64,000 nucleotides of DNA from Pholidichthys leucotaenia (taxonomy: Eukaryota): the NCBI GenBank assembly GCA_020510985.1, contig CM035846.1, positions 202,651,081 through 202,715,080 of the forward strand, given 5' to 3'. Below the pieces are notes generated by a model, which saw only the letters and a list, made by a program, of their open reading frames with translations, was not told where the DNA came from and ran no database searches. Position numbers and translations under genes: made by a program. Shown piece by piece: positions 11,703 through 53,637 of the stretch (positions within the stretch are counted from its first letter, which is position 1; every line of letters starts with the position of its first letter).

Positions 11703-12030
11703 ACATTGTAACCATTCTTTATGAAAAAAATTGTCCATTAGTAAAGAAAAAGCTTAAACATGAATTTATCGATAAGCCATGGTTAACCAAAGGATTACAA
11801 AAGGCGTGTAAAAAGAAAAATTTATTATATAAAGCTTTTCTAAAGAAAAGGACAAAAGAAGCAGAGCAGCGGTATAAAACATACAAAAACAAGTTAACAT
11901 ATATAATGAGATGTAGTAAAAGAGACTATTACAGTAAAGAACTGGAGAAAAACAGACAATATTAAAAATACATGGACAATACTTAACAATATTCTTGGAA
12001 ATAAAAACAAATACAAGCTACCCAACCATT

Positions 12031-12426
12031 CATTCATTCATCTTCTTCCGCTTAATCCTTTTCGGGTCATGGGGGGGCTGGAGCCTATCCCAGCATCTTT
12101 GGGCGGGAGGCAGGGTACACCCTGGACAGATCGCCAGTCCATCGCAGGGCCAACACAGAGAGACAGACAACCATTCACTCTCACATTCATACCTAAGGAC
12201 AATTTAGAATCCCCAGTTTGATGCCAATTAACCTAACTTGCATGTTTTTGGCATATGGGAGGAAACCGGAGAAATCCCGGAGTAAACCCACGCAGACACG
12301 GGGAGAACATGCAAACTCCACACAGATCATTGTTGGTCGGGGGCTGGGATCGAACCCAGGATCCCCCGGCCAAGGGTGAGTTGCTGTGCTGCTGTAGTGC
12401 TAACCACTGCGCCACCGTGCTGCCCC
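12031..12426 (-). mobile_element. tRNA-derived SINE, near full length. The tRNA-like head lies at 12426 and the (TGAA)n tail at 12031.
   Basis: Reverse complement reads GGGGCAGCACGGTGGCGCAGTGGTTAGCAC...GGTTCGATCCC (A and B boxes). Conserved core ...GTTTCCTCCCATATGCCAAAAACATGCA.... Flanking direct repeat CCAACCA. Confidence 0.75.
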
Positions 12427-12463
12427 AACCAATTTTTTAAAAAATAATAAAACGACTCAGAGT

Positions 12464-12898
12464 GTGAATGCAGTTTCACCTGCAGATGAATTTAATAACT
12501 TTTTTGTTAACATTGGTCCTAATTTGGCTCGAGAAATACCCATTACGGCACCTACGGGTGATACAATAATCAAAAACACTGCTATAAAAGACTCCATTTT
12601 CATAAAGAACACAGACAAGAGAGAGGTCATTGAAATTGTTAAATCGTTTAAAAGTAAAACATCTACGGACTGTGATGGTATTGACATGCTCTTAGTCAAA
12701 ACTATTATTGAATGCTTAGTGAAACCACTGATGTATATTTGTAACCTGTCTCTCCAAACAGGTATATTTCCCAATGCAATGAAAATAGCTAAAGTAATTC
12801 CGATATACAAGACGGGTGACAGAGGGGAACTTTCAAACTATCGACCAATTTCACTATTGCCGCAATTTTCCAAGATACTTGAAAAAAATATTCTGTGA
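12464..12898 (+). CDS. LINE #2 RT N-terminal segment (fragment)
   Basis: ...GELSNYRPISLLPQFSKILEKNI. Confidence 0.6.
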   Translation: MNAVSPADEFNNFFVNIGPNLAREIPITAPTGDTIIKNTAIKDSIFIKNTDKREVIEIVKSFKSKTSTDCDGIDMLLVKTIIECLVKPLMYICNLSLQTGIFPNAMKIAKVIPIYKTGDRGELSNYRPISLLPQFSKILEKNIL

Positions 12899-13019
12899 GA
12901 GAATTGACAACTTCATAATGAAGAATAATCTATTGTGTGAGCAGCAATATGGGTTTAGACACGAGAGGACAACTGCATTTGCTCTAATGGAATTTATAGA
13001 AAAAATATCAACTGTCGTT

Positions 13020-13511
13020 TGTCACGCCGCGCCGCTCATCAGCAGCGCCACCTGCACGCACACCTGCACATCATCAGCGGCGAGGAATATAAGTCGCCTC
13101 GCCCTGAGCTTTGGCCTGAAGCCGTCAGACTTCATCCCCCTTCAACGTGAAGCAACCTACTCTTCAGCACAACGCTGCGTGGTAAGAAATCCTTACCTCA
13201 TCTTTTCCAGTCTGCTCCCCTGTGCACAGGTGGATTCCTCGGCGGCGGACGACCCCGTTCCCTCGTCGTTCCTCGCTGCTGCACCGAGCCCTGCAGGTGG
13301 CTGTCTCCCGGGTTCCGTCCTTGTTGTGCCAGTCATCTGTCCCTAGCAAGGTTGCCGGCTGTACGGTCTCCTGCCTCTGTGCCTGAAGCAGACGCCGCCA
13401 CCAACACATTAACATTCCGCAGACACTCATCCATTCACCCCTGTTGCTAATAAACTATTTGAACTACTCTGAGCCTGTGTGTGTGCGTCTCCTGAGCCGA
13501 ACGTTATGTCA
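13020..13511 (+). mobile_element. Solo LTR, family R1, copy b (492 bp, TG...CA), inserted in the LINE #2 RT, with TSD TCGTT/CCGTT
   Basis: Homologous to 5476..6087 (shared blocks cccctgtgcacagrtggattc, ctgagcctgygtg, gccgaaygttatgtca). Confidence 0.5.
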
Positions 13512-13665
13512 CCGTTGGAAATAAAGAGTACTCAGTTGGGGTATTCCTGGATCTTAAAAAAGCATTTGATACAGTGGATCATAATTTATTATTAAAGAAA
13601 CTAACAAAATTGTGGTATTAGGGGGGTAGCACTGTCCTGGTTATGTAGTTACTTAAAGAATAGAT

Positions 13666-14067
13666 TGTGGAAATGTGAAAGGACGAGGCAGAGTTTATCT
13701 CACGAGTCAGGTTTATTCACATTCTCCAACATCAGCAATACAGAAAAGAGAAAGAAACCCAGACCGTCATCCCTTTTTATACCCCAGGAGCTTCAAAGCT
13801 CCAGACACATTGCATTTAATCCCAAGTAACAATGCATCCTTTTCAGATCTTATCACCTCCACCCAAAGTCACGAGCAGCCAGTAAATCCCCCACGGCCAT
13901 CTCTTTGCATACCAAAGCCCACATTTCACATCCTCCTGTTACCTCCGAGGAGGCTCAGTCCTTTGTTCATCTGAGACATGAAGCATACACTAAGCATACA
14001 GTGATATACATATGAAGCATAAGGTGATATACATTTGTGCATATGAAACCCACATATGTGTCCCACA
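13666..14067 (-). repeat. 3' LTR of Gypsy B
   Basis: About 98.5% identical to 18066..18467. Confidence 0.85.
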
Positions 14068-14137
14068 TGACCCCCCCAAACGTCTAAGATGTAACAACGG
14101 AATAACAGTCAGCCTGTCATGATAAAATCATTACACC

Positions 14138-17100
14138 TCAGCCCACATGTTGCTTGGGCCTCAGTCTCCTCCCGTATCTGCTGTAAGCCGGCTTCAACAC
14201 TTCAGTGGCGCCATCCTGCTGGGGGGCTGCTGTCTGAGGGTGAGAATTGTTAGTTAATCCCTGTGGGTGTTCTGGGGGATGTTCTCTAGGGGGTCTGCCG
14301 CGCCGAGGAGCCGTGGCCAACAGCACATCGTCATCCGCCACCACAAAGGCGGGTTTGAGCCTGTTAATGCCAATCTTCTCCCTCCTGCCCCCCAAATCTA
14401 GCAAAAAATGCTTATCCCCTGTTTCCAGCACTCTAAATGGCCCATCATAAGGTGGTCGTAACGGCGGGCGATGGGCATCGTGTCTGACAAAAACAAACTT
14501 TGCGTTTTTTAAAGCCTTAGGTATAAAAACGCGCGGAAAACTGTGGTGAATGGGGCCAGGCAGCGCGCCCGATTCCGTGCCACGCTGCAACCACTGAGCC
14601 GGGGAACATTCTGGCGCAGGATTATCTGGGAGAAACTCCCTGGGCAGCCGAAGTGGCTGCGCAAAAACTAGCTCTGCCGGGGAGGCTTCTAAATCCTCTT
14701 TAGGTGCAGAACGCAACCCCAATAAAACCCATGGTAGCCTGTCCACCCAATTTGCATCCATAAGCGACGCTCTGAGAGCCATTTTCAATGACCTGTGAAA
14801 ACATTCGCATAACCCGTTAGCTTGCGGATTGTACACGGTTGTGCGGTGGATTGTTACCCCCAGGCTGCGGGCCATTGCTGACCAAAGTTCTGAAACAAAT
14901 TGAGGGCCTCTGTCAGACGTAACGTCCGACGGAACTCCAAAACGCGCGACCCATGCTGTTAAAAACGCGCGCGCCACCTCCTCGGCTGTGGTTGACGCCA
15001 GTGGGACCACTTCCGGCCAGCGCGTGGTGCGGTCTACCATTGTCAGAAGGTGTGTGCACTCCTGTGACGACGGGAGGGGGCCTACGAGGTCCACGTGAAC
15101 ATGATCGAACCTCTTAGCCGGGATGTGAAACGGCTCCAAGGGAGCTCTCGTGTGTCTGTGTACCTTGGCTCGTTGACAGGCCATGCAGGCTGCTGCCCAC
15201 TCCCTAACTTGTTTGCGCAGGCTCGGCCATACAAATTTCTCTCCCACCATTTTGACCGACGCGCGCACTCCCGGGTGCGCCAGAGAATGAATCGAGTCAA
15301 AAACGCGGCGGCGCCACTCGGCGGGTACCACCGGACGCGGTCGCCCAGTGGAGACGTCGCAGATTAGGGAGGGCATACTGTCTTGCAGCACCCTGTTCTC
15401 CAGCCTTAACCCTGTTGGTCCAGACTGGAGCGCGCACACGTCCGCGTCGCTAACCTGATCCACGGCCATGGCCGCATAATCTACCCCCACGCGGACTGGA
15501 GCTGCCACGGCGCGCGAGAGGCAGTCTGCCATTACATTAAGTTTACCCGCCACATGCTGGATATCGGTAGTAAACTCTGAGATCGCGGCCAGCTGTCTCT
15601 GCTGCCGGCCTGACCACGGTTCTGAAACCTTGGCCATCGCGAAGGTCAGCGGCTTGTGATCAACGAACGCGGTGAAACGGCGTCCCTCCAGCCAGAACTG
15701 GAAGTGGCGAATGGCCAAGTGGAGAGCTAACAACTCCCTGTCGAATGCGTTGTATTTTCGTTCACTATCGCGCAAGGTCCTGCTGAAAAAGGCGAGTGGT
15801 TGCCAAGCCCCGGCTACATGCTGCTCCATGACCGCCCCTATGGCCACATCTGACGCGTCAGTAGTGAGCGCTATGTGGGCCGTTGGGTCTGGATGTGCTA
15901 ACAACGCAGCGTTTGCCAGCGCTGTTTTGACTTCCGAGAATGCTCTCTCTCGCTCCGGAGACCATTCGATTTTATTGGTGGGTTTTTGTTTTTTTAGTGC
16001 GGCATATAATGGTTGCATGAGCTGCGCTGCGCGGGGGAGGAAACGGTTATAAAAATTCACCATTCCCAAAAACTCCTGTAACGCTTTGACCGTTTGTGGC
16101 TGGGGAAAATTTGTTACTGCGCGCACTTTGTCAGGCAGAGGAACCGCTCCTTCTGGAGAGACGCGATGCCCCAAAAAATCAATCTGCGTCACCCCGAACT
16201 GACACTTCGCTGGGTTGATTATTAACCCGTGCTCTGCCAACCTCTGGAAAACTGCCGTGAGGTGGTTTTCGTGTTTGTCTTCGGAACCGCTGGCTTCCAA
16301 AATATCGTCCAGGTAGACGAACACGAAGGGGAGATCGTGCAACACCGCGTCCATCATGCGTTGGAACGTCTGCGCCGCGCCTTTAAGCCCAAACGGCATG
16401 CACAAAAACTCGAATAGACCGAACGGAGTTATTACCGCTGTTTTGGGTATGTCCTCAGCGCGTACTGGGACCTGGTGGTAACCACGTACCAAGTCTATCT
16501 TAGAAAAAACGCGCGACCCCGCCAAATGAACTGAAAAATCTTGGATATGCAGGATTGGGTAGCGGTCGTGCGCTGTAGCATTGTTCAACCTGCGGAAATC
16601 TCTGCAAGGTTGCCACGAGCCATCAGCTTTCGGGACCATATGAAGCGGTGAAGTCCATGGGCTTTTCGAACGCCTGATGATGCCCAACTTTTCCAGGTTG
16701 GCGAACTCCTCGAGCGCTATGGTCGGTTTAGCTGAATCCAAGCGCCGGGCTTTTGCAAAAACGGGCGGTCCAGTGGTAGTAATAAAATGTTCCACCCCGT
16801 GTTTAGACACGGCCGCCGAAAATGTTGGGACCGTGAGTGCTGGGAACTGAGTGAGCAGTGTGTGGAACTTACCACCTGCGGCTGTGACATTGGCTTGTGC
16901 TGTTGGCGGGGCCACTCGAGCTGTACAGGGAATAGAATAAAAAGAGAGTGCATTAACCAGGCGCCTGTTAGCAAGATCAACCAACAAACCATGTGAGCAC
17001 AGAAAATCAGCCCCTAACATATTGAAATTCACTGCAGCTATTACAAAAGTCCACTCAAATGTACGGCCGTGTAGGGACAGAAGCAGAGTCCTCTCACCAA

Positions 17101-17482
17101 AGGTCTTAATCGCCGGGCTGTTCGCTGCTGACACCCCGGGACCACTGGAAGGCGCCAGCCGGTCAGCGGAGGAAGGTGTGATGAAACTCAACTGGGAGCC
17201 TGTGTCCACGAGGAAATGCCTCCCCGAGTGCGCATCCTTCAAGTAGAGCAGCTTGTTCTCCTCTCCGAGGGCCGCAGCTGCTACCGACCCCCGGACTTGG
17301 CGTTTCCCGAGGGCTTGAAATGGCATGGTGGTATACATTTGCGTGCCTTCTCTGCAAAGCGGCGATGGTAGAAACAGAGGGTGTCTCCTCCGCGATCCTT
17401 GGCCCCCACCGCCGCCGTCGTCGTCGGTGGGTCTGCTACCGTCGTCTCTGGCCCCTCGCCGTCTCCGGCCGTCGCACCGCAC
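14138..17482 (-). CDS. Gypsy pol polyprotein, 1114-aa intact ORF: protease (VDTGS), RT (YLDDIL), RNase H, integrase (HHCC, DDE, GPF)
   Basis: Domain order PR-RT-RH-IN. The frame is open upstream of the first Met and overlaps gag in the -1 frame. Confidence 0.85.
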   Translation of the reverse strand: MRCDGRRRRGARDDGSRPTDDDGGGGGQGSRRRHPLFLPSPLCREGTQMYTTMPFQALGKRQVRGSVAAAALGEENKLLYLKDAHSGRHFLVDTGSQLSFITPSSADRLAPSSGPGVSAANSPAIKTFGERTLLLSLHGRTFEWTFVIAAVNFNMLGADFLCSHGLLVDLANRRLVNALSFYSIPCTARVAPPTAQANVTAAGGKFHTLLTQFPALTVPTFSAAVSKHGVEHFITTTGPPVFAKARRLDSAKPTIALEEFANLEKLGIIRRSKSPWTSPLHMVPKADGSWQPCRDFRRLNNATAHDRYPILHIQDFSVHLAGSRVFSKIDLVRGYHQVPVRAEDIPKTAVITPFGLFEFLCMPFGLKGAAQTFQRMMDAVLHDLPFVFVYLDDILEASGSEDKHENHLTAVFQRLAEHGLIINPAKCQFGVTQIDFLGHRVSPEGAVPLPDKVRAVTNFPQPQTVKALQEFLGMVNFYNRFLPRAAQLMQPLYAALKKQKPTNKIEWSPERERAFSEVKTALANAALLAHPDPTAHIALTTDASDVAIGAVMEQHVAGAWQPLAFFSRTLRDSERKYNAFDRELLALHLAIRHFQFWLEGRRFTAFVDHKPLTFAMAKVSEPWSGRQQRQLAAISEFTTDIQHVAGKLNVMADCLSRAVAAPVRVGVDYAAMAVDQVSDADVCALQSGPTGLRLENRVLQDSMPSLICDVSTGRPRPVVPAEWRRRVFDSIHSLAHPGVRASVKMVGEKFVWPSLRKQVREWAAACMACQRAKVHRHTRAPLEPFHIPAKRFDHVHVDLVGPLPSSQECTHLLTMVDRTTRWPEVVPLASTTAEEVARAFLTAWVARFGVPSDVTSDRGPQFVSELWSAMARSLGVTIHRTTVYNPQANGLCECFHRSLKMALRASLMDANWVDRLPWVLLGLRSAPKEDLEASPAELVFAQPLRLPREFLPDNPAPECSPAQWLQRGTESGALPGPIHHSFPRVFIPKALKNAKFVFVRHDAHRPPLRPPYDGPFRVLETGDKHFLLDLGGRREKIGINRLKPAFVVADDDVLLATAPRRGRPPREHPPEHPQGLTNNSHPQTAAPQQDGATEVLKPAYSRYGRRLRPKQHVG

Positions 17483-18048
17483 TCCGTCGCTGCTGCGGTG
17501 GCCGCGCGCTGCTTGCTGGCATTGAGAATCTGGTGTGCCTCCTGGGCCAGCGCGTGGAAGTCCCGCTGGGCCAACAACGGTGAACCGGCCAGGGTCGCTC
17601 TCGTGGCCGACGGTAGGGTTCTCAGGAAAATGTGGGTGAAGAGGAAGTCGTCGCCGTCTGAGCCCCTCAACCTCAGCATGTCTTCCATCAGGTCAACGGG
17701 CGTGCCATCTCCCAAGTCGTTCAGAGCCAGGAGTCTCTCCGCTCTCTCCTGGGCTGAGAGAGTAAAACGCTGGATGAGCGCAGCCTTCAACGCGTTGTAT
17801 TTGTCGTCGGCCGGTGGCTTCACCAAAAGGCTCTGCACATGCCGAGCTGTGCGGTTGTCGAGCTTGGCAATTACATGGTAGAATTTCGTCTCATCTACCG
17901 TTATCCCCCGGAGGGCAAACTGTACTTCGACCAAGAGGAACCAGGAGCACGGGTTGTCTCGCCAAAAGTCCGGTAGCTGGACGGTAGCGGCATACGCCTG
18001 GCTGGGAGCTCCTGACCCGGCTGGTTCGGGGGGATTTCTTTCACTCAT
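17281..18048 (-). CDS. Gypsy gag, 255 aa, CFYHRRFAEKARKCIPPC knuckle
   Basis: Intact ORF. It starts inside the PBS region 16 nt from the LTR. pol begins in the -1 frame. Confidence 0.8.
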   Translation of the reverse strand: MSERNPPEPAGSGAPSQAYAATVQLPDFWRDNPCSWFLLVEVQFALRGITVDETKFYHVIAKLDNRTARHVQSLLVKPPADDKYNALKAALIQRFTLSAQERAERLLALNDLGDGTPVDLMEDMLRLRGSDGDDFLFTHIFLRTLPSATRATLAGSPLLAQRDFHALAQEAHQILNASKQRAATAAATECGATAGDGEGPETTVADPPTTTAAVGAKDRGGDTLCFYHRRFAEKARKCIPPCHFKPSGNAKSGGR

Positions 18049-18065
18049 CGTCTTAGGGTCACCAT

Positions 18066-18467
18066 TGTGGAAATGTGAAAGGACGAGGCAGAGTTTATCT
18101 CACGAGTCAGGTTTATTCACATTCTCCAACATCAGCAATACAGAAAAGAGAAAGAAACCCAGACCGTCATCCCTTTTTATACCCCAGGAGCTTCAAAGCT
18201 CCAGACACATTGCATTTAATCCCAAGTAACAATGCATCCCTTTCAGATCTTATCACCTCCACCCAAAGTCACTGGCAGCCAGGAAATCCCCCACGGCCAT
18301 CTCTTTGCATACCAAAGCCCACATTTCACATCCTCCTGTTAACTCCGAGGAGGCTCAGTCCTTTGTTCATCTGAGACATGAAGCATACAGTAAGCATACA
18401 GTGATATACATATGAAGCATAAGGTGATATACATTTGTGCATATGAAACCCACATATGTGTCCCACA
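18066..18467 (-). repeat. 5' LTR of Gypsy B
   Basis: Direct repeat of 13666..14067. Confidence 0.85.
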
Positions 18468-19706
18468 AGATATCAGTATGTATGTGTTGGTAGCAAAAAC
18501 TCACAGTTACTGAAGGTTACTTGTGGAGTCCCACAGGGTTCAGTTTTGGGGCCACTGTTATTCAATATGTATATAAATGATATATGTAAAGTTTCCAAAA
18601 AAATGGATTTAATACTGTTTGCCGATTCGCATAATCTATTATGCAGTGGAAGCAATTTGGAATAACTTTTGGATACACTCGGAAAGGAATTAGGAAAGCT
18701 TAAACTGTGGTTTGATTCAAACAAATTAACGCTCAATTTAAGTAAGACAAAATTTATAGTTTTTAACAACCATCACAACAACTTAGTATCTAAACTCAGT
18801 GTAAATGGTGTAGAGATTGAAAGGGTATCCGAAACACATTTTGTCTTAGCTTTGTTCCGAATTGTAATCGCTCTTGTTTTGTTTTTCTTTTGAATTCTTG
18901 GATGGAATATGGGTGGGCAATATAAGCTGCGGCTTCAGCCATCACCCATTTCGGATAACTTATGTTGAACTGTATAATCAGAGGAGTTATTGTTTGATTT
19001 GACCTTGTTGGATTTTTTTTTTCTTTTTTCCCCTTTGTTATATTATTCTGTTTCTTTTTAATCTTTACTTTTAATCTGTCCGAAATAAAGATTCATTCAT
19101 TCATTCATTCAAAGTTAAAATTATATTGTTACAGTAACATAAAAATTAAAATAATGTCTATTTTAAACCCAAAAAATTAAGCTTTCATTTAGTGGTGGAG
19201 TGACTATGGAAAAAAATGTTATGTTGATGAGAAGATGAGTGAAAAATAAAGAGTATCTCTTTTCAGCCTTCAGAGCAAATCCTCCTTGGTCAACACTGAA
19301 TGCAATGCTGAGTTACAGAAGTTTTGAAAATGAAAAGACAATCCGACATGTAACCATCATGTCGATATATCCAACCGAGGTGTACGCAATACAGGATTTA
19401 TCTTTTTTAGTGCAGTGGAACCTTCCAACACATGAAAAAATATGAAAACTCACAGATTTTCTTTAGTGCACAAAGGAGTTTGATATCCTGTGCGGCCATC
19501 GTCATCTTCATCTATTTGTTGCATCAGTGAGGTCCAAAAAGAAAATTACTGAACAAACCTTTCACTGTTTAAAAGCTCCTTGCTTAGAGTTTTGGTAACA
19601 TCATCATCACCAAGTGATTTTGCAGTGGATTTTGTGGGAAAAGGAGAGGTGAACACCCAGATCAAAGAGAAACTGACTGGCCTCACAGACACAATAGAGC
19701 CCTGTG

Positions 19707-22454
19707 TGATGTATCAAATATGATACATTTCATATTGTGTGTGTACTATGGGTGGCGGCTCCACCTTTCCGGTTCCGCCGCCACCCTGGGTATAAAAGTC
19801 GGATGCGGAAGAGGCACGGCCTCTTTACGACCAGACCTCCAGAATTATTTGGTGGCCTTAAACCTCGGCGAATTGGAGAAACTACATGCACGAGCGATTT
19901 TGGTCCATAATCTCGGCATGGTGGAACAACGCATTTTCAGCACATTGGGTAAGAATGATAGTTTTGAAGACGTGGTCGGGCTAATGGTGCGCTACTTTTG
20001 TGCTTTGGAAAACGTCATAGTCCGAAGGATTCAGTTTTGGCAGTCCCGCCAGTGGACTGGAGAGTTGGTGCAGCGATACGTCGCAGACCTGCGTCAGCTG
20101 GCTGGGGAATGCCAGTTTGGGGCTTTGGAAGAAGAAATGGTCTGCGATCAGTTGGAGGAGCACACGTTATGTTCTGCGGCATGGTCAAGGCTCCTTACAC
20201 ACTCCGGTGAATTGACATTAGCCACGGCAGTCAGGATAGCTCAACAGTTTGAAGCGGCAGATAAACTATCCAAGGACCTCGGTGAGAGAACTACGTTGAG
20301 GCAAGCTGAATCACAATTGGCGGTGCAGGCTGTGGACCCGGGTAGCGAGGATAGCGCAGAAGATATGGAGGAATACGCTACCGCTATTAAAATAAGGTCT
20401 GCTCTGGGGTCACCCAGATGTATAGGCTGTGGGTCCACCAAGCACCCATACAATGCAAAAGAGTGTCCGGCAAGAGGCAAATGCTGTGGCAAGTGTGGAC
20501 TCCTACACCATTTCACCAGGGCCTGTAAAAAATTTGAGCGAGGGGAACGACAACGCGAAGTGCATTCCCCCGCCACAACTCCTACGGCTGTTCACACCGT
20601 CTCCCCGAGCACAGATGGGTGGATTTACTGTAATGTGATGCTGGACGCCGTGGAAGTGCCGTTGTTGGTGGACACGGACGCAGCAGCATTTTCCGTGTTG
20701 AGCTGGCCTACTGTGAGGAGTTTGTTCCCGTATTACCGAGTGAGAGGACTGTCGATGCCATATTGTGGCTATGGAGGTAATAGACTGGCCATCGTGGGTT
20801 CGCTGGAGTTGACTGCGAGACACAAGTCGGCTGTGATGTCCAACGTTCAGTTTGTGATGACTGTCAGCTGGTCTAACGTGATGGACTGCGACATGTTCTA
20901 CGGCATGGTCTTCATAATCACCAGTGGCATCAGAGAGGAGTGGTCGGGGTGTGGTTTGTGGGACCGACCAGTTCCGAGCGTGGTGGACGATGCGGTATGG
21001 GACAAAGACAAGCCTAGTATTGTGGGAGATGACCAGGACCAATTCCATCCAGGGCCGTCATGGGAGGGTTCTGGTGCCAGAGTCCAAGTTTCCCTGGATG
21101 TAGGAACTGGGCTGCACGGTGGAACGCCCGTGATGGAGTATGGGGCCGAGAGGATAGCTCACTCTGCTTCCGGAGTTCGGCCTGGAGATACCGAGACGCA
21201 AGGGGCTGCAACGGCTTTACCGGTGTTTGAAATGAAAGAGAGTGGGGCAGGACCAGCTGGCACGGTGGACAGAGGTGCCACACAGCAACACTGGAGGCCG
21301 AGTCAGGCTTCGTATGGGGTCGGTGGAGCGGTTTGACCCAGAGAGGAAGCCCAGTCTAAATGTCCTGGACATATGAAGCAGAGTTGAGCGCCCCTGTGGG
21401 TCACTGACATGGTTCGACCCAGGGGGAGGCTTGGCTAAAGGGGGCCCATGACAAGAGGAAACAACGGGATGACCAGGGGTGGCTGCGGGTGGTAGCTGTT
21501 CAGGAGGACGGCTATCTCCAGTTGTCCGATGACTCATGGAGACACCCCAACGAGCTGCGGCACACCAGCGATGAGAAGGAGGTGTCGAAACTTTGACATG
21601 GCTCATCTTCAGAGGCAAAGAGATGAAGGTGCTCTGGGCAGGATCTGCCAGACGGGTCTCTGCGGGTGGCTTCTCCATCGGGACTGTATGGTAGAAAGGG
21701 GGCGATGGGTTAAACTGCATATGGTGTTGTGAATTGCTTAGGCTATGTAGTCAATATGTTCTTTGCATTGAGTGCTATGTGAGTTGCCCTTGTACAAAAA
21801 AACAAAACAAAACAAAAACCAAGTGATGTTTCGAGTGTATGTTACTGTGTGGTTTGCCCAGGTTGTGGGGTGGTTTTGTTGGGTGTGCTTGTAGCAGTGT
21901 GTGAACGTAAATATTGACTGGTTATTTGTTGAATGGAATTTGCCTGTATGTATAAAAGTTCACGGGATTATTTTCAGTTATATTAGGAACACGGCAGTTT
22001 TTTCTTTATTTTCATGGACTTTATATATATTGATAAAGACGGAAGAATAATCCGTCTAGCCGTGTGGAGGTGGGACAGTAGTCCACCCGTCCCCCTCTAG
22101 TTTTAGTTGTTTTGTGTGCATAGATAGTCCTAACTATTGTGTTCATTGTTAGTGTGTGATTCGGGTCGCAAATTTGGGAGGGCCTAATTGGTGTGTTTTG
22201 GACTTTTGTACAGGGGAGGGGGTGATGTATCAAATATGATACATTTCATATTGTGTGTACTATGGGTGGCGGCGGAACCGGAAAGGTGGAGTCGCCACTC
22301 TGGGTATAAAAGGCGGATGTAGAAGAGGCACGGTCTCTTTACGACCAGACCTCTGCCTATACGAGAGCGCCTGTGACACATTGTGAGTTCCTTAATAAAC
22401 CTACGTTCTACTCCACCTCCTACCTCGTTATTGAAGTACAGGTTATGGACATAA
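19707..22454 (+). mobile_element. Family G copy G2: a short 5' LTR-like repeat 19707..19839, a PBS-like TGGTGGCC at 19850, a gag-protease ORF, and a 3' LTR-like repeat 22223..22454 that continues at 24703..24711 after the insertion of element C
   Basis: Direct repeats with a TATA box (19791 and 22305) and AATAAA (22396) flank the ORF. Collinear with copy G1. Confidence 0.55.
19720..21336 (+). CDS. gag-protease fusion ORF, 538 aa: capsid, two zinc knuckles (CIGCGSTKHPYNAKEC, CGKCGLLHHFTRAC) and a protease with DTD in place of DTG. The first roughly 40 residues are read from the LTR-like repeat and are probably not the true start.
   Basis: No RT or integrase follows. Homologous to the G1 pieces. 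Confidence 0.6.
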   Translation: MIHFILCVYYGWRLHLSGSAATLGIKVGCGRGTASLRPDLQNYLVALNLGELEKLHARAILVHNLGMVEQRIFSTLGKNDSFEDVVGLMVRYFCALENVIVRRIQFWQSRQWTGELVQRYVADLRQLAGECQFGALEEEMVCDQLEEHTLCSAAWSRLLTHSGELTLATAVRIAQQFEAADKLSKDLGERTTLRQAESQLAVQAVDPGSEDSAEDMEEYATAIKIRSALGSPRCIGCGSTKHPYNAKECPARGKCCGKCGLLHHFTRACKKFERGERQREVHSPATTPTAVHTVSPSTDGWIYCNVMLDAVEVPLLVDTDAAAFSVLSWPTVRSLFPYYRVRGLSMPYCGYGGNRLAIVGSLELTARHKSAVMSNVQFVMTVSWSNVMDCDMFYGMVFIITSGIREEWSGCGLWDRPVPSVVDDAVWDKDKPSIVGDDQDQFHPGPSWEGSGARVQVSLDVGTGLHGGTPVMEYGAERIAHSASGVRPGDTETQGAATALPVFEMKESGAGPAGTVDRGATQQHWRPSQASYGVGGAV

Positions 22455-22894
22455 TGCGGTGGATGATAAAAATAGGCAGCGATGCTGTGGTTTTAAGCAG
22501 GTTTTATTATATCATACCGCCGTCACGAGCTCCGCTCCCGGCGCTGTGCATGCGCGCCGGGAGCGAGCCTAAGCGGCTCTCAGAGGAGGAGGACACAAAG
22601 TCTGTGTCCTGCAGCAGCAGTTGCAGAATCAGAATGAGATTGAGAGAGCGAGTTACAGAACCTGTGCAGTATTTATACCTAACTCAGACAATACATCAAA
22701 GAGCGGATTCACAGCAGTTGGTACGATCAAAGGGACTGCAGAACAGGCATGAGATATTTGCATTTGAAAGACCTACATAACAATAGGCAGATTTGCTAGC
22801 CTCTGCTCCAGGTGTAGGACAAAGAGGTTACAAGGCACATCTACATATTGATCTCAGCCTCTAGGTCACAGTAAGGACAGGGCGCATGAACACT

Positions 22895-22998
22895 ATACAT
22901 GAATGGCACATTACATCACAATACATGAATGGCACATTGCATCACGATACATGAATGGCACATTACATCACAATACATGAATGGTACATTACATCTCA
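22895..22998. repeat. 26-bp minisatellite (atacatgaatggcacattacatcaca), 4 units, inside the 5' LTR of C
   Basis: Read directly. Confidence 0.7.
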
Positions 22999-24496
22999 GT
23001 AGTGCAGCGGGAAAAACCAAGAGAAGAGAGCTGACTGTCCTGTGTGTTGTGGGGGGGTTGAATCAACCCGCCACACGCTCCCCCCCAGAGGGCACGGCAG
23101 GGGGCTGAGACCTCGATAATCCATCTATGGGAGCGAGCTGTGGGAGAAGCTCGCTGCAGGCGGAGGGGGAGGGAGGGGAGGGGTAGTAAGTGCCGGCAGG
23201 GGCGGTGAAATCGTCCGAGCCGCGCAAAAATTGCTTGCTGCTCCGTGATGTCGAGGGGCTGTCCCGTTGCGCGTGCGGAGATCACAAGAAGAAAAATTGG
23301 TCTCTGACTCCTCTCGTGGCCATGAAGAAAAGCAGGAGCGGCTGTAAGAAAAAAAAAATAAAAGCAGAGGGACTGGCGTGTTGACTTTAGGGCAGGCGCA
23401 ACTCTAAAGCCTCGGGAACCACAGACAGCTGAATTCCCCTTGTGTGCCGTGGCTAAGACCATAAAATCCAGTGAGCAAGCTGCGGGCCTCAGGTGTACAA
23501 GCAAGCCTGAAGGGCCAGTGTGCAGCAGAAAGAAGGCGGTCAGAAGAGCTGTATTTGTCCCATGCGTGGTGTGCCGTCCTCGTAACTCCCCGGTGCGCGC
23601 GCGGGGGTTCCGTGCGTGGGTGGGCCGCTGGAGTGGCGAGTCAGGGTGCAGAATCTTGGTGGAGATCGGCGCAGACAGCGCCGATAAAACCCAGGTTTGG
23701 GCTGTGGCTGCAGCTTGGCCATGGTGCATTGGAATTGTGGGAGGAAATAGACGATCTTTTGTCCCTCAGGCTCGTGCAGATGCGTTGGAGCGGTGGGGGG
23801 GAATAGACGATCTTTGGCACCACTCGGCCATGGTGCGTTCAGGTCCACATGTTGCGTTCTCCGCCGGCCATGGAGGATGCCGTCGCGGAGAGGGAACGAG
23901 GTGCCTGCGCTCTTGTGTGGAGGAACTGCGAGCGCGGCTGGTCCAGCGTGGATGAGCAGATCTCAGACGTGCAGATCTCATCATGAAGAACGGGTCACCA
24001 GCGCAGCTGTCCAGATCAGAAGGCTGCGTGTTCACATCACGTCGGGGTCACCAAGTGCGGCGGATGATAAAAATAGGCAGCGATGCTGTGGTTTTAAGCA
24101 GAGTTTTATTATATCATACCGCCGTCACGAGCTCCACTCCCAGCGCCGTGCATGCGCGCCGGGAGCGAGCCCAAGCGGCTCTCAGAGAAGGAGGACACAA
24201 AGTCTGTGTCCTGCAGCAACAGTTGCAGAATCAGAATGAGATTGAGAGAGCAAGTTACAGAACCTGTGCAGTATTTATACCTAACTCAGACAATACATCA
24301 AAGAGCGGATTCACAGCAGTTGGTACGATCAAAGGGACTGCAGAACAGGCATGAGATATTTGCATTTGAAAGACCTACATAACAATAGGCAGATTTGCTA
24401 GCCTCTGCTCCAGGTGTAGGACAAAGAGGTTACAAGGCACATCTACATATTGATCTCAGCCTCTAGGTCACAGTAAGGACAGGACGCATGAACACT

Positions 24497-24626
24497 ATAC
24501 ATGAATGGCACATTACATCACAATACATGAATGGCACATTGCATCACGATACATGAATGGCACATTACATCACAATACATGCATGGCACATTACATCACA
24601 ATACATGAATGGCACATTACATCTCA
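24497..24626. repeat. The same 26-bp minisatellite, 5 units, inside the 3' LTR of C
   Basis: Read directly. This accounts for the 26-bp difference in LTR length. Confidence 0.7.
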
Positions 24627-24993
24627 GTAGTGCAGCGGGAAAAACCAAGAGAAGAGAGCTGACTGTCCTGTGTGTTGTGGGGGGGTTGAATCAACCCGCC
24701 ACAATAACACCCTTCAGGATTCAACATGCTGAAAACAAGAGGCCCGTTAAAGGCCACAGCACGGGGTAGATGCCGTATTCTCACCCTGACACAGTTTAAA
24801 ATTTCCTTGTTTAAACGTAAATATCAGCCATGAGGGGTACAATCCACAAATTAAAGGAAAAATTGCAAATCATAAGATTAAAGTAATACATTTTTTGTTA
24901 ATTGTAATTTTTTTTCATTAAATGTACAACTTTTATTCATGATGTCAATATTAATAGGTCATAATATTATGCTCCCTTGCTTTTAGCATGGAT

Positions 24994-31233: not shown

Positions 31234-31566
31234 TTTTTTTTAATATATATTTTGATCCCCAGAGGGAAATTCAGGGCATCCACGTGGATGGATGAGGCAG
31301 CCACAGTGTGGCGCCAATCCCTTCACCATTCACACACACATTCACACCTAGGGCCACTTTAGAGACTTCAGTTAGCCTAACTTGCATGTTTTTGGCCTGT
31401 GGGAGGAAACCGGAGTACCCAGGGTAAACCCATGCAGACACAGGGAGAACATGCAAACTCCACACAGAAGAGTCACTGATGGTCAGGGGGTGGGATTGAA
31501 CCCACAACCTTCTTACTGTGCTGCCACAGTGCTAACCAGTGCTAACCACTGCTCCACCGAGCTGCA
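31234..31566 (-). mobile_element. Complete tRNA-derived SINE with a poly(A) tail, nested in LINE #4
   Basis: Reverse complement reads GCAGCTCGGTGGAGCAGTGGTTAGCAC...GGGTTCAATCCC...TTAAAAAAAAA. Confidence 0.7.
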
Positions 31567-43031: not shown

Positions 43032-44059
43032 ATGCCACAGGTTTCAAGCAATATGGGAAAGAAAAAGGATCTCTCTGCAGCCAAAAAGTGTCAAATAGTG
43101 CAATGCCTTGGACAAGGTATGAAAACATTAGATATTTCACAAAAACTTAAGTGTGATCTTCGTACTGTGAAGAAATTTGTGTCTGATTCAGAGCACAGAC
43201 GGGTTCGTGCAGATAAAGGCATAATGAGGAAGGTTTCTGCCAGACAAATTCATCGGATTAAGAGAGCAGCTTCTAAAATGCCATTACAAAGCAGCAAACG
43301 GGTATTTGTAGCTGCTGGTGCCTCTGGAGTCCCACGAATCTCAAGGTGTAGGAGCCTCCAGAGGCTTGCAGTTGTGCGTATACCTACTATTTGGCCACCC
43401 CTAACCAATGCTCACAAGCAGAAGTGGTTGCAGTGGGCCCAGAAATACATGAAGACTAATTTTCAAGCAGTCTTGTTTATTGATGAGTGCCCTGCAACCC
43501 TGGATGGTCCAGATGGATGGAGTAGTAGATGGTTCGTGGTTGGCCACCATGTCCCAACAAGGCTGCAACATCAGCAAGGAGGTGGCAATCATGTTTTGAG
43601 CTGGAATCATGGGGAAAGAGCTGGTAGGCCCCTTTAGGGTCCCTGAAGGTGTGAAAATGACCTGGGCAAAGTATATAGAGTTTCTGACTGACCACTTTCT
43701 TCCATGGTACAAAAAGAAGAATCGTGCCTTCCATAGTAAAATTATCTTCATGCATGACAATGCACCATCTCATGCTGCAAAGGATACCTCTGTGTCATTG
43801 GCTGCTATGTGCATAAAAGGAGAGAAACTCATGTTGTGTGCCCCATCCTGACCTCAACCCTTTTGAGAACCTTTGGAGCATCCTCAAGCAAAAGATCTAT
43901 GAGGGTGAGAGGCAGTTCACATCAAAACGGCAGCAATGGGAGGCTATTCTGACATCTTGCAAAGAAATTCAAGCAGAAACACTCCAAAAACTCACAAGTT
44001 CAATAGATGCAAGAATTGTGAAGGTTATATCAAAGAAGGGGTCCTATGTTAATATGTAA
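43032..44059 (+). pseudogene. Transposase of element D spread over three frames (43032..43637, 43609..43851, 43838..44059)
   Basis: An HTH N-terminus and a DDE-type C-terminus. Two frameshifts. Confidence 0.7.
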
Positions 44060-44164
44060 CTTGGCCTGTTAAGATGTTGTAGATTGAAATAGCTTTTGAT
44101 TTCAGTAACTATGACCTCCTAATGCTGCAAATTCAACAAATGACCATTTTCAGTTCTTCACAAC

Positions 44165-44433
44165 CATCCATCCATCCATCTTCTTCCGCTTAATCCTTTT
44201 CGGGTCGTGGGGGGGCTGGAGCCTATCCCAGCATCTTTGGGCGAGAGGCAGGGTACACCCTGGACAGATCGCCAGTCCATCGCAGGGCCAACACAGAGAG
44301 ACAGACAACCATTCACTCTCACAGTCATACCTAAGGACAATTTAGAATCCCCAGTTTTGATGCCAATTAACCTAACTTGCATGTTTTTGGCATGTGGGAG
44401 GAAACCGGAGAAGTCCCGGAGTAAACCCACGCA
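44165..44433 (-). mobile_element. tRNA-derived SINE that lacks its head, nested in element D
   Basis: (CATC)n tail ...cttccgcttaatcc...ggaggaaaccggag. It is truncated at cccacgca. Confidence 0.65.
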
Positions 44434-46264: not shown

Positions 46265-46641
46265 TCATTCATTCATTCATCTTCCGCTTAATCCTTTTTG
46301 GGTCGCGGGGGGGGGGAGGGGCTGGAGCCTATCCCAGCGTCTTTGGCCGAGTGGCAGGGTACACCCTGGACAGATCGCCAGTCCATCGCAGGGCCAACAC
46401 AGAGAGACAGACAACCATTCACTCTCACAGTCATACCTAAGGACAATTTAGAATCCCCAGTTTGATGCCAATTAACCTAACTTGCATGTTTTTGGCATGT
46501 GGGAGGAAACCGGAGAAATCCCGGAGTAAACCCACGTAGACACAGGGAGAACATACAAACTCCACACAGATCACTGCTGGTCGGTGTCTGGGATCGAACC
46601 CAGGATCCCCCGGCCAAGGGTGAGTTGCAGTGCTGCCGCAG
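46265..46641 (-). mobile_element. tRNA-derived SINE (head truncated by about 25 bp) nested in Tc1 B'
   Basis: Homologous to 12031..12426. Confidence 0.7.
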
Positions 46642-46959
46642 TCAAACAAATTTAAATATTAGACAAAGATAACGCAAGTAAACACAGTGCATTTTTTAAA
46701 TGAAGGTGTTTATTATTAAGGGTAAAAAAAAATTCATAGCTACATGGCCCTCTGTGAAAAAGTGATTTCCCCCCCCCCCCCCCCCCTGTTAAAACATAAA
46801 TTAACTGTGGTTTATCACATCTTTGGAAAGCGGAGTACAATTTCTCTAGCCACACCCAAGCCTGATTACTGCCACACCTGTTCTCAATCAAGAAATCACT
46901 TAAATAGGACCTGCCTGACAAAGTGAAGTAGACCAAAAGATTCTCAAACAGTAGACATC

Positions 46960-50239: not shown

Positions 50240-52321
50240 TTAGATGGGTAAGACTTTTAGATTAGAAAAGTGAGATATAAAACATTGCCATTTCTGGTAA
50301 AACCTTTCTTTGCATCCTCTTATCGTATATTTTATTTTCTCAAGTTTTAGAAAAAACATCATATCCTTGAGCCATAGGGAAATTGAGGGATATCTGACAG
50401 ATTTCCAATGCAGCAATAAAGTACGCCTTGCTATTAAGGATGTAAAGGCCACAATATCCCTTTGTGCCGAATTCAGAACTACAGAGTCGTCGGGAATCCC
50501 AAATATGGCAATAAATGGAGAAGGCAGCAGAGTCACTTGAAGAACCGTGGAGATAATTGTAAAGTAACTAGACCAAAAACTGTATAATTCCGGACAAAGA
50601 AAAAACATGTGGCCAAGGTGACAGGGAGATCCCTTACATTTATCACAACTACCATCAACTTCTGGGTAAATCTCAGTGAATCTCGATTTTGAGAAATGGA
50701 CTCTATATAGTACCTTAAACTGAATCAAGCTAAGACGAGCACATGAGGAAGACGTTCTAATTCTGTTAATGGCATCCTCCCAAAGCTCTTCAGTCATCTG
50801 TATACCCAATTCTTTCTCCCACAAATTTTTTATTTTGACACTTGATTCATCGTTTAATATTAAAATGGAATTATAAAGCTTAGATATCAGCCCTTTATGT
50901 TGTGGACCATGTGAAACTATACTTTCCCAGGGCTGCTCAGGAGGGATAGAAGGAAAGTTAGAGAAACACTTAGAAACAAAATTACAAATTTGAAAATAAC
51001 GAAACAAATGGGTGCCGGGTAAGTTGTAATTGGAAGATAAATTGGTAAAACTATCAAAAAGCCCGGATGTATATAAATTCCTTATATGTTCAATACCCCT
51101 GTCATGCCAATCGGAGAATGACGAATCTGAGAGAGATGGGGGAAACAAATGATTTTTAGTTAAAGGACACAAAGAGGACACAGCTACAAAACCAAAGCGC
51201 CGCCTAAACTGAAACCAGATTTTTAATGTGCTGAGAACCACTTGACTGTCCGTATACAAAGAGGGTTTTGTAGGCAAAGAGGAAAAAATTAATGCAGGTA
51301 TTGACGACCCACAACAGGATGATAATTCCATTCTACACCATGGGGAGCGAAAAGACTTTAACCAATAGCAGATTTTATGTATATGTGCCGCCCAATAATA
51401 TGATTGAAAATCAGGTAATGCAAGTCCCCCGCTAAGTCTACATCTTTGCAATAATTTTTTATGAACTCTAGGCGGTTTACCATTCCAGATAAAGCCACAA
51501 ATTATCTTATCCAGAGAATCAAAAAAGTTTTTAGGCAGAAAAAGAGGAATTGATTGAAATAAAAGAAATTTTGGTAAGATATTCATCTTGACAACATTGA
51601 TCCTACCCAAGAGTGAAAAAGGGAGATTTTGCCAATGCTGGACGTCAGAGGTTATTTCGGCAATAAGGGGAGAAAAATTGGCTGAAGCTAGGCTAGAGAA
51701 AGAGCGTGTCACATTTATACCAAGATACTTGAATCCTGTGTGACTAAGTTTGAAGGGTATGTCAGACTGCTGAAGATCACAGGCAGTCGTATTGGTGGGA
51801 AAGCATTCACTTTTTTCCAAATTCAATTTATAACCGGAAAAGGAAATGAAATTATTTAAGATACTCAAGATATTGGGGATAGAACTAACTGGATTTGACA
51901 CATATAACAACAAATCATCCGCATATAACGACAACTTGTGTTCAGTTCCATTTCGGAAAATCCCTCTAAATAAATTGGAAGACCGCAACGCAATGGACAG
52001 AGGCTCAATGGCAATCGTGAAAAGCAAGGGTGATAATGGACAGCCTTGCCGTGTGCCACGTCCAAGAGGAAAATAATCAGAAAACATATCGTTAGTTTGA
52101 ACCCTTGCCTTCGGGGATGTATAGAGGAGACGAATCCAAGAAATAAATTTCTCGTTGAATCCAAATTTCCTCCAAACCGCAAACAAATATTCCCACTCTA
52201 CCCTGTCGAACGCTTTTTCAGCGTCTAGCGATATGACTGTTTCTGGTGAATCAGATGACTGCTTTGCATAAATTATATTGAAGAGTACGTATATTAAAAA
52301 ATAATTGTCGTCCCTTAACAA
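50240..52321 (-). CDS. L1 ORF2 RT plus C-terminal domain, 693-aa ORF
   Basis: RT motifs and ...CDKCKGSPCHLGHMFFLCP... Confidence 0.8.
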   Translation of the reverse strand: MLRDDNYFLIYVLFNIIYAKQSSDSPETVISLDAEKAFDRVEWEYLFAVWRKFGFNEKFISWIRLLYTSPKARVQTNDMFSDYFPLGRGTRQGCPLSPLLFTIAIEPLSIALRSSNLFRGIFRNGTEHKLSLYADDLLLYVSNPVSSIPNILSILNNFISFSGYKLNLEKSECFPTNTTACDLQQSDIPFKLSHTGFKYLGINVTRSFSSLASANFSPLIAEITSDVQHWQNLPFSLLGRINVVKMNILPKFLLFQSIPLFLPKNFFDSLDKIICGFIWNGKPPRVHKKLLQRCRLSGGLALPDFQSYYWAAHIHKICYWLKSFRSPWCRMELSSCCGSSIPALIFSSLPTKPSLYTDSQVVLSTLKIWFQFRRRFGFVAVSSLCPLTKNHLFPPSLSDSSFSDWHDRGIEHIRNLYTSGLFDSFTNLSSNYNLPGTHLFRYFQICNFVSKCFSNFPSIPPEQPWESIVSHGPQHKGLISKLYNSILILNDESSVKIKNLWEKELGIQMTEELWEDAINRIRTSSSCARLSLIQFKVLYRVHFSKSRFTEIYPEVDGSCDKCKGSPCHLGHMFFLCPELYSFWSSYFTIISTVLQVTLLPSPFIAIFGIPDDSVVLNSAQRDIVAFTSLIARRTLLLHWKSVRYPSISLWLKDMMFFLKLEKIKYTIRGCKERFYQKWQCFISHFSNLKVLPI

Positions 52322-52984
52322 AACCGTTCTGTTCTTCAGATATAATCAAAGGGAGAACCTTCTCCAAACGGGAAGAAATTACTTTGGCTAACACTTTCAT
52401 GTCAGCATTAAGCAATGATAGTGGTCTATAAGAGCTACATAGAGTTGGGTCTTTGTCCTTTTTATGAAGTAAAACAATCGAAGCTTGTGTTAGTTGGAGG
52501 AAGGATACCTCGTTCTAATGATTCATTAAATGTAGCTAAAAGTAATGGTGCTAATTTTTCTATAAACTTTTTATAAAATTCGATGGGAAACCCATCAGGG
52601 CCAGGTGCTTTGTTTGATTGCATTGCTTTAATTGAATTAATTATTTCGACAAGGCAGAGTGGGGAATCCAGGCTTTTTGCTGTATCCAAGTCAATTACAG
52701 GATTCGAGAGGTCATGAAGAAATATGTTCATGTTATATGAATCTGTTGGGAACTCCGACGTATATAGAGAAGAATAAAATGTTTTAAATGTGGCATTGAC
52801 TTCATTAGGATCCATCGTGATAATATGTTGGATATTCTGAATACTACTTATAATCCAAGAGTTTACTTGACTCCGTAGCTGATGTGCCAATAGACGGCTT
52901 GCTTTGTCACCATATTCATAATGAGTTCCACGACTTTGTAATAATAGCCGTTCAGCTTCATGGGTTGAAATTAAGCAATTAATG

Positions 52985-53160
52985 GCAATATAAGCTGCGG
53001 CTTCAGCCATCACCCATTTCGGATAACTTTTGTTGAACTGTATAATCAGAGGAGTTATTGCCTAATTTGACCTTGTTGGATTTTATTTCCCCCTTTTGCT
53101 ATACTATTCAGTTCCTTTTAACCTGTACTATCCGAAATAAAGATTCATTCATTCATTCAA
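52985..53160 (+). mobile_element. Severely 5'-truncated CR1/L2 LINE 3' end (176 bp) inserted inside L1 ORF2
   Basis: Near-identical to the LINE #2 3' end at 18915..19110 (gcaatataagctgcggcttcagccatcacccatttcgg...ccgaaataaagattcattcattcattc). Confidence 0.6.
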
Positions 53161-53637
53161 ATTAGATCAAGTTCTGATTGTACCTCCATGCGCTGTTTAA
53201 ATAATTCTGGTGTAGGATTTAAGGCATATCTTTGATCAATATTACTGATAGCTAAAGTGAGTTCAGTAAACTTAGCGTGACGTCTCTTATTAGAAAGTGC
53301 AGAGTAGTAAATGATTTGTCCTCTAAGGTAGGATTTAAGTGTCTCCCATAGTAGTGAATATGAAATAGAATCATTTTTATTAAACAACAAAAACTCATCA
53401 ATTGAATTGAAAATAAAATCACAAAACTCTTTATCTGCTAAAAGAAGAGAATTAAACCTCCATGAAGGAAGACTACATTTATAGGCACCCAACTGAATAT
53501 CTAATAGTAATGGTGCATGATCAGATATTATTATACTTAAATAATCAGAGGAAACTACACAGGAATTTGGAGTACAGCCAATAAAAAAGTAATCAATCCT
53601 GGAGTAAGAATGATGCACCTTAGAAAAGGAGAATTTT

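Follow-up and report, generated by a model that had tools for sequence, protein, structure and literature searches.

In a stretch of 64,000 nucleotides (nt) from Pholidichthys leucotaenia (assembly GCA_020510985.1, contig CM035846.1, positions 202,651,081 to 202,715,080, hereafter the window), we characterized an element of 4802 bp that occupies positions 13666-18467 on the minus strand. The element is very probably a full-length, non-chromoviral Ty3/Gypsy long terminal repeat (LTR) retrotransposon of the CsRn1 type, residing in a teleost genome and devoid of an env gene. It integrated cleanly into the reverse transcriptase (RT) sequence of a long interspersed nuclear element (LINE), and it did so after the LINE. 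Both the element and its nesting are real and ordinary; this is a textbook nested insertion and not a new kind of element.

Boundaries of the element and its insertion into a LINE

The element reads along the minus strand, with the 5' LTR at 18066-18467 and the 3' LTR at 13666-14067. Each LTR is 402 bp long, and the alignment of the pair contains six substitutions and no indels (98.5% identity), which agrees with the roughly six differences given in a preliminary description of this DNA. Both LTRs begin with TGTGG and end with CCACA, showing the usual TG...CA termini. Additionally, each LTR carries TATAAA at its position 287 (18181-18176 and 13781-13776) and AATAAA at its position 351 (18117-18112 and 13717-13712), which are untouched by all six differences and presumably act as the promoter and polyadenylation signals, respectively. 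The identical 4-mer AGAT, already proposed as the target-site duplication (TSD), is located at 13662-13665 and 18468-18471 and touches the outer ends of both LTRs. A 4-bp flank match alone would arise by chance once in 256 cases; chance is excluded here because the match coincides with a 402-bp repeat pair and with a gap-free RT alignment over the junction.

The host LINE lies on the plus strand in three parts. The first (12450-13016) is truncated at its 5' end, at about 12450, and covers the pre-RT region together with the N-terminal RT, changing frame near 12885; the second (13506-13665) continues the RT up to ...SYLKNR and contains a 1-nt frameshift near 13612; the third (18472-18840) resumes with YQYVCVG... 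and runs through GVPQGSVLGPLLF and FADS, with a stop codon at about 18663 and coding similarity ending near 18840. When the element and one AGAT copy (13666-18471) are removed, ...ALSWLCSYLKNR runs into YQYVCVGSKNSQLLKVTCGVPQGSVLGPLLF in a single frame. Specifically, the left side of the restored junction ends with ...GIRGVALSWLCSYLKNR, which joins YQYVCVGSKNSQLLKVTCGVPQGSVLGPLLF, and the joined empty-site sequence reads ...TACTTAAAGAATAGATATCAGTATG....

The reconstituted LINE protein matches RVT_1 in one stretch (residues 117-330, E = 3.6e-34) that spans the junction at residue 233. Against the PDB, it aligns as a single stretch with human LINE-1 ORF2p (E = 7.9e-19), followed by R2 proteins. 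A degenerate scan for the joined sequence also returned an unrelated metagenomic LINE, L007, which reads NYLKNRYQYV...CGVPQGSILGPLLF without interruption and aligns with the joined LINE over 128 residues at 52% identity with no gaps. Because the junction is seamless in all three comparisons, with RVT_1, L1 ORF2p and L007, the insertion was clean and the Gypsy element was the second to arrive, as the preliminary description had it.

That description also placed the element within an open reading frame (ORF) of a LINE RT. The clean insertion into the RT sequence stands, but the ORF does not, since only the local frame is restored: the LINE retains at least two frameshifts (at about 12885 and about 13612) and the stop at about 18663, and its RT has the catalytic motif FADS where FADD is expected. 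The RT is of the non-LTR type and has the motifs KAFDTV, SYLxNRxQxV and GVPQGSVLGPLLF as well as the FADD-like one; by the resemblance of SYLxNRxQxV and GVPQGSVLGPLLF, the host is putatively a CR1/L2-like LINE, from which the target copy differs in being a decayed, 5'-truncated fragment. The LINE RTs at 9127-11079 and 50240-52321 of the window were rejected as empty-site paralogs, as they represent different LINE types.

The LINE fragment bears a second interruption at 13017-13505, an unrelated GC-rich (58%) segment of about 490 bp around which no clear TSD could be made out; parts of the segment are similar to 5518-5757, at 73-82% identity. The 5' end of the fragment abuts an interspersed repeat of about 400 bp (12023-12424) with a tRNA-like portion (...GGGATCGAACCCAGG...CTAACCACTGCGCCACCGTGC), further copies of which are found at 44161-44433, 46266-46642, 55811-56150 (minus strand) and 31325-31504. 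This repeat is probably a family of short interspersed nuclear elements.

Coding content and the candidate frameshift signal

The gag ORF (17281-18048, minus strand) starts with ATG and encodes 255 residues that match Pfam DUF7041 (E = 2.9e-23). The pol ORF (17482-14138, minus strand) spans 1114 residues, lies in the -1 frame relative to gag and overlaps it; retranslation revealed no stop codon or frameshift in either ORF, in agreement with the intact gag and pol reported before. The length of 1114 residues holds for the ORF, measured from stop to stop, but not for the product, which is expected to be a Gag-Pol of 1303 residues made by frameshifting. Within this product, the Pol part begins at the slip site and comprises 1054 codons up to the stop (14138-17302, minus strand).

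As indicated by its Pfam domains and motifs, Pol follows the order protease (PR), RT, RNase H (RH) and integrase (IN), with IN after RT. Specifically, the protease is recognisable by FLVDTGS and LGADFL, the former containing DTG (residues 93-95, within 17209-17195). Four Pfam matches follow in order: RVT_1 at residues 283-441 (16160-16636, E = 1.1e-31), with YLDD at 16315-16304; RT_RNaseH_2 at residues 507-637 (15572-15964, E = 4.4e-31); Integrase_H2C2 at residues 719-774 (15161-15328, E = 9.4e-14); and rve at residues 791-886 (14825-15112, E = 1.2e-14). The C-terminus of IN contains GPF (within 14446-14429) as part of YDGPFRV, residues 1012-1018. None of the catalytic motifs (DTG, YLDD, DAS/E/D, HHCC and D,D,E) is missing. 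The Pfam search of Pol found no chromodomain, and the 3' LTR follows the pol stop (14138-14140) after 70 nt, leaving no env gene.

The best PDB matches of Pol are Ty3 Gag-Pol (7q5b, E = 8.5e-102) and Ty3 RT (4ol8, E = 3.5e-84), and caulimovirus (E = 1.2e-46), foamy virus (E of about 1e-33) and other retroviral enzymes lie far behind; together with the Pfam domain set, these matches bear out the earlier assignment to Ty3/Gypsy. The protein search returned 4356 homologs at E <= 1e-20. The best named ones are teleost proteins called 'Gypsy retrotransposon integrase-like protein 1' or 'K02A2.6-like', with 60-74% identity, and the closest gag (72%) comes from Pholidichthys leucotaenia itself. The closest gag relatives, P0121-P0125, are from this species, on sequence records of 360-490 Mb, and one of them is annotated as fused to 'ester hydrolase C11orf54 homolog'; transposable element (TE) gag sequence has probably been mis-annotated into host gene models. 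An exact-sequence look-up of the studied gag itself matched no record.

The transition from gag to pol appears to involve a -1 slip. Near the end of gag and within the gag/pol overlap, the minus strand carries the heptamer G GGA AAC (17308-17302) in the zero frame of gag (context tc-G GGA AAC), a canonical X XXY YYZ sequence. Six nucleotides downstream, a stem-loop with an 11-bp stem is predicted at 17264-17295. A -1 slip at 17308-17302 would conceptually yield the 1303-residue Gag-Pol, composed of 249 Gag and 1054 Pol residues, and in the -1 frame the sequence continues as GKRQVR..., in line with the conserved GK(R/L) with which the Pol of homologs begins.

For comparison, six related loci were fetched: from Synchiropus splendidus (L001), Oryzias latipes (L002), Serrasalmus rhombeus (L004) and Entelurus aequoreus (L006), from a Tara Oceans marine-metagenome contig (L003), and from an ENA assembly (L005). 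GGGAAAC is conserved at the gag/pol overlap in five of these six relatives (L001, L002, both copies in L003, L004 and L006), with GGAAAAC in L005, and it is also found in a second Gypsy element of the window (1-3200). Over eight aligned sites, 96.6% of the cells of the stem are paired, and six of its 11 pairs have changed on both sides. In the controls, sliding the partner by 1-3 columns lowers pairing to 34-47%, and none of 500 shuffles reaches the observed covariation score. The stem-loop region is doubly coding, itself a constraint that tells against this interpretation; despite this, the compensatory changes in the stem support a real frameshift-stimulating structure downstream of GGGAAAC.

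Programmed -1 frameshift signals consist of an X XXY YYZ heptamer and, 5-9 nt behind it, a stable stem-loop or pseudoknot, and GGGAAAC is used at the gag-pro junction of some betaretroviruses. The predicted signal resembles such retroviral-type signals in its zero-frame G GGA AAC, its 6-nt spacer and its stable, covarying 11-bp stem, and differs from them in that one relative, L005, has the non-canonical GGAAAAC. Taken from sequence, these features suggest that -1 frameshifting actually takes place at GGGAAAC.

Conserved priming signals, age and competence

The primer-binding site (PBS) of the element (18049-18065, minus strand) consists of an A followed by TGGTGACCCTAAGACG, the reverse complement of 18049-18064. 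The latter begins 1 nt after the 5' LTR, much as the preliminary description had noted, and its first nine nucleotides, TGGTGACCC, are complementary to the 3' end of tRNA-Trp; thereafter TAA replaces C, and GACG follows. At the other end, the polypurine-tract (PPT) region (14068-14090, minus strand) includes a run of seven G (14071-14077) 3 nt upstream of the 3' LTR, which is the G-run described earlier. The minus strand reads ATCTTAGACGTTTGGGGGGGTCA up to the LTR edge and TGTGGG beyond it, and in the orientation of the element the sequence directly before the 3' LTR ends with ...GACGTTTGGGGGGGTCA.

The same layout recurs in the relatives, which are 4155-4375 bp in total length. In the five with clear LTR pairs (L001, L002, L004, L005 and L006), the LTRs measure 141-225 bp and have TGT(G/A)G...ACA ends, a run of six to eleven G stands 3-4 nt before the 3' LTR, and the TSDs are all 4 bp (ATCC, ATGT, ATAA, AATT and GTGT). 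In all six relatives, a PBS starting with TGGTGACC lies one base after the 5' LTR and continues with (C/T)CGAC...; it reads TGGTGACCCCGACG in L004, ..CCCCGACA in L005 and L006, and ..CCTCGACGT in L003. PBS, PPT, TSD length, slip site and stem are family-wide conserved traits. When JGI metagenome contigs were scanned for exact matches to the junction between LTR end and PBS, none was returned. The metagenome contig L003 (7132 bp) contains two CsRn1-type copies, 85% identical, arranged head to tail as LTR-gag-pol-LTR-gag-pol; this reflects either a tandem array with a shared LTR or fish DNA that was chimerically assembled in the metagenome.

We take the PBS of the relatives to be the complement of the 3' end of tRNA-Trp. 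A partial check of this end is provided by a 43-nt tRNA-Trp 3' half in the window (24011-24053), which has the anticodon CCA and the terminal CCA. A chimera of this half with a tRNA-Trp 5' half was called tRNA-Trp(cca) by ARAGORN. ARAGORN found no tRNA gene in the window, and Rfam found no tRNA at 24011-24053, the sole match there being a sub-threshold microRNA that we regard as chance. The half lies directly inside the 5' LTR of another minus-strand LTR element (22455-24703) and is followed by a second TGGTGACCCG; it looks as if plus-strand strong-stop synthesis had read through into the tRNA primer and thereby duplicated the PBS. That element, of about 2.25 kb, is bounded by a 648-bp direct repeat pair (22455-23075 and 24056-24703, 94.3% identical) and is apparently internally deleted.

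The LTR divergence (p = 0.0149, 95% confidence interval 0.55-3.2%; Jukes-Cantor K = 0.0151) was converted into an age as K/2r, with the rate r assumed to be 1-5e-9 per site per year. This places the insertion at roughly 1.5-7.5 million years ago, a date that is weakened by its dependence on the assumed rate and on only six differences. The element had been called young, which suits its 1.5% divergence under these rates, but it is not brand new. The ratio of observed to expected CpG is 0.91 in the internal region versus 0.54 in the whole window, consistent with little time under methylation-driven decay.

To judge the condition of Pol, we used as an in-genome outgroup another CsRn1-type Gypsy element, which lies at the left end of the window (minus strand, 1 to about 3200). 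This sister element is cut by the window start, and its Pol is 81% identical to that of the studied copy. It has a gag (2304-3191) with DUF7041 and the CHCC motif, the reverse complement of the PBS core GGTCACCA at 3122, and a Pol that is open over 778 residues and carries D608N at the catalytic Asp of RNase H and G157D in the protease.

The studied Pol has 18 replacements at sites invariant in 14 homologs, about ten of them of the CpG to TpG or CpA type. As a measure of decay this number was dropped as overstated, since eight of the 18 are shared with, or also altered in, the sister element and are lineage-specific. Over the 281 invariant columns compared, six replacements are private to the studied copy (G122S, A277T, G294R, P311L, R361C and G808E), four of them of the CpG-decay type; A883V, R894C, G948R and D1040N lie beyond the coverage of the sister element and are not polarisable. 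V396E was left out of the count, as one homolog has I at this site, where the sister element keeps V. Two considerations temper the count as evidence of damage: the sister element has five private changes of its own, so that the number alone cannot separate decay from divergence, and the private replacements were judged against the 14 homologs and the sister element and may be family traits.

At half the LTR divergence, neutral drift would produce, by a rough estimate, about five changes in 281 invariant codons, compared with the six observed. The chance of escaping any stop codon at this divergence is about 30%, again roughly estimated, and the open ORFs are therefore compatible with neutral drift since insertion. 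On balance, we favour the view that the copy has suffered missense damage under neutral drift and has probably lost full competence as an autonomous source element. The suggestion that it may still retrotranspose keeps its footing in the open ORFs, but current activity is doubtful because of the six private Pol replacements and the 9-nt PBS match.

It seems unlikely, though the idea deserves serious weight, that the copy remains a fully competent autonomous source that makes functional Gag and Gag-Pol and retrotransposes today. Both ORFs are open with all catalytic motifs in place, the six LTR differences spare TATA and AATAAA, the slip site and stem are intact, and the CpG ratio of 0.91 indicates little decay; moreover, L001, L004 and L005 have 100% identical LTRs, so the lineage is active in teleosts. 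These points are countered by the private replacements, which include G294R, P311L and R361C in RT and G808E in the IN core, and by V396E and R894C, which adjoin YLDD and the catalytic E of IN, respectively. The CpG-decay type of four of the six private changes, their closeness to the neutral expectation and the chance of about 30% that open ORFs survive by drift all point the same way, as does the PBS, which is disrupted after 9 nt where the relatives keep 10-15 nt.

Clade placement and significance

Residues 225-242 of Gag (17376-17323) read C-FY-H-RRFAEKARK-C-IPP-C, that is, CX2HX9CX3C (CHCC), and the same spacing is found in the sister element, L005, P0006 and P0121. In CsRn1-like elements, the CHCC signature CX2HX9CX3C and a tRNA-Trp PBS are conserved (Bae et al. 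2008, PMC2582038). We place the element in the CsRn1 clade because of this Gag motif and the tRNA-Trp PBS. The clade is further known for a 4-bp TSD, a GPY/F motif in IN and the absence of chromodomain and env, and variants whose gag and pol overlap by a -1 frameshift are represented by nine AgCR elements (PMC2582038). The studied element shares all of these traits, as well as the PR-RT-RH-IN order, with CsRn1 of Clonorchis sinensis, PwRn1, AgCR-1 to -14 and CsRN1-1 and CsRN1-2 of Takifugu, and its DUF7041 domain can be read as a CsRn1-type Gag; a full-text literature search for 'DUF7041' returned no papers.

CsRn1-clade families have been catalogued in medaka, stickleback, Tetraodon and Takifugu, and the Takifugu families are 4337-4552 bp long with LTRs of 174-302 bp and a Pol of 1061-1069 residues (PMC4746887, PMC11117352). 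The present element is close to them in size and Pol length, and the fetched relatives, at 4155-4375 bp, agree with them as well. It differs from its relatives in the LTR, which measures 402 bp versus 141-225 bp in the five fetched loci and 174-302 bp in Takifugu, in a PBS complementarity shortened to 9 nt, and in a best protein identity to anything in the database of only 69-74%; this family is therefore not yet represented there.

Several points weigh against this reading. The protease stays below threshold in hidden Markov model searches (gag-asp_proteas E = 0.003, RVP E = 0.27); of the profiles named beforehand for pol, RVT_1 and rve were recovered and RVP was not significant. The gag homology search reached fish relatives only and not the invertebrate CsRn1 members, and the match to tRNA-Trp is only 9 nt contiguous in the studied copy, compared with 10-15 nt in relatives. 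Finally, membership in the clade is proposed from structural hallmarks and from agreement in size with teleost families.

Yeast Ty3, the type element of Metaviridae, is the best solved-structure match over RT-RNase H and shares the domain order and a Gag-Pol made by frameshifting. Ty3 relies on +1 frameshifting, is primed by tRNA-iMet, generates a 5-bp TSD, has a CCHC Gag knuckle and targets Pol III genes; none of these features applies to the studied element.

That the element belongs to another Ty3/Gypsy clade, such as Mag/Jule, Barthez or Gmr/Osvaldo, is improbable. The homolog name 'K02A2.6-like' is generic, the CsRn1 placement was made from structural hallmarks, and the size of 4.8 kb resembles that of Jule, a fish element of the Mag family. 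A Mag/Jule family was indeed suspected from size and homolog names, and was dropped in view of the CHCC motif and the tRNA-Trp PBS: the Gag knuckle is exactly CX2HX9CX3C and not CCHC, and the PBS is of the tRNA-Trp family. All Gmr and Mag elements in a tetraodontiform survey have fused gag-pol, whereas gag and pol here are separate, overlapping ORFs, and the Barthez elements of that survey are 7.3-8.8 kb long. Gmr1 has IN before RT (PMC2582038), contrary to the RT-RH-IN order found here, and a V-clade element or chromovirus is excluded by the absence of a chromodomain.

An endogenous retrovirus or BEL/Pao element would show the same LTR-gag-pol layout and PR-RT-RH-IN order, and avian sarcoma/leukosis viruses are likewise primed by tRNA-Trp. 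Even so, this assignment can be set aside with near certainty: the 70 nt from the pol stop to the 3' LTR leave no room for env, the Ty3 matches in the PDB surpass those of any retroviral RT or IN by over 60 orders of magnitude, the Pfam search gave no matches to Peptidase_A17, DUF1758 or other Pao-type families, and RT_RNaseH_2 and Integrase_H2C2 occur throughout the Gypsy-annotated homologs. It is equally hard to credit that mis-joined assembly or a repeat arising by chance produced the pattern without a real insertion, for which nothing more specific speaks than a very repeat-rich window of a kind prone to mis-assembly, given the exact 4-bp TSD and gap-free restoration of the target frame, the complete and colinear LTRs, PBS, PPT and coding region, and the recurrence of this architecture and TSD length in five independent loci.

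For the CsRn1-type element, the mapped features suggest the following life cycle. Transcription would begin downstream of the 5'-LTR TATA box and end after the AATAAA of the 3' LTR, and Gag, with its CHCC zinc knuckle, would be translated from the ATG directly after the PBS. A fraction of ribosomes would slip by -1 at G GGA AAC (17308-17302), aided by the 11-bp stem-loop 6 nt downstream, to produce a Gag-Pol of 1303 residues with PR, RT, RNase H and IN. At the PBS, tRNA-Trp would prime minus-strand DNA, the G-run tract would serve as the priming site of plus-strand DNA, and integrase would make a 4-bp staggered cut. Judged by its LTR divergence of 1.5%, the studied copy would have integrated a few million years ago at AGAT inside the RT fragment of a 5'-truncated CR1/L2-like LINE, now decayed.

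The surrounding window is dense in TEs. It contains a LINE RT ORF of 650 residues at 9127-11079 (plus strand), an L1-like element with endonuclease and RT ORFs at 50240-54237 (minus strand), a transposase-like HTH_23 ORF at 43032-43637 (plus strand), and a gag-like ORF of 538 residues with a zinc-knuckle C-terminus at 19720-21336 (plus strand), which has a 71% identical inverted relative at 6243-8574.

The finding has little importance beyond annotation, and nothing in it challenges current understanding. It is a tentative and rather doubtful idea that the copy represents a CsRn1-clade family that is undescribed and still active, with LTRs unusually long at 402 bp and a tRNA-Trp PBS shortened to 9 nt, and, separately, that the GGGAAAC and 11-bp-stem signal, conserved with compensatory changes in teleosts as distant as Characiformes and Percomorpha, may be undescribed for vertebrate CsRn1 elements. 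The element illustrates TE nesting at good resolution and puts two insertions in order. This full-length Gypsy copy of the CsRn1 type, whose cis-signals are all mapped, is useful for the repeat library of this fish genome, and its conserved slip site and stem could be used as a compact -1 frameshift signal, supported by covariation, for Gypsy elements of vertebrates.

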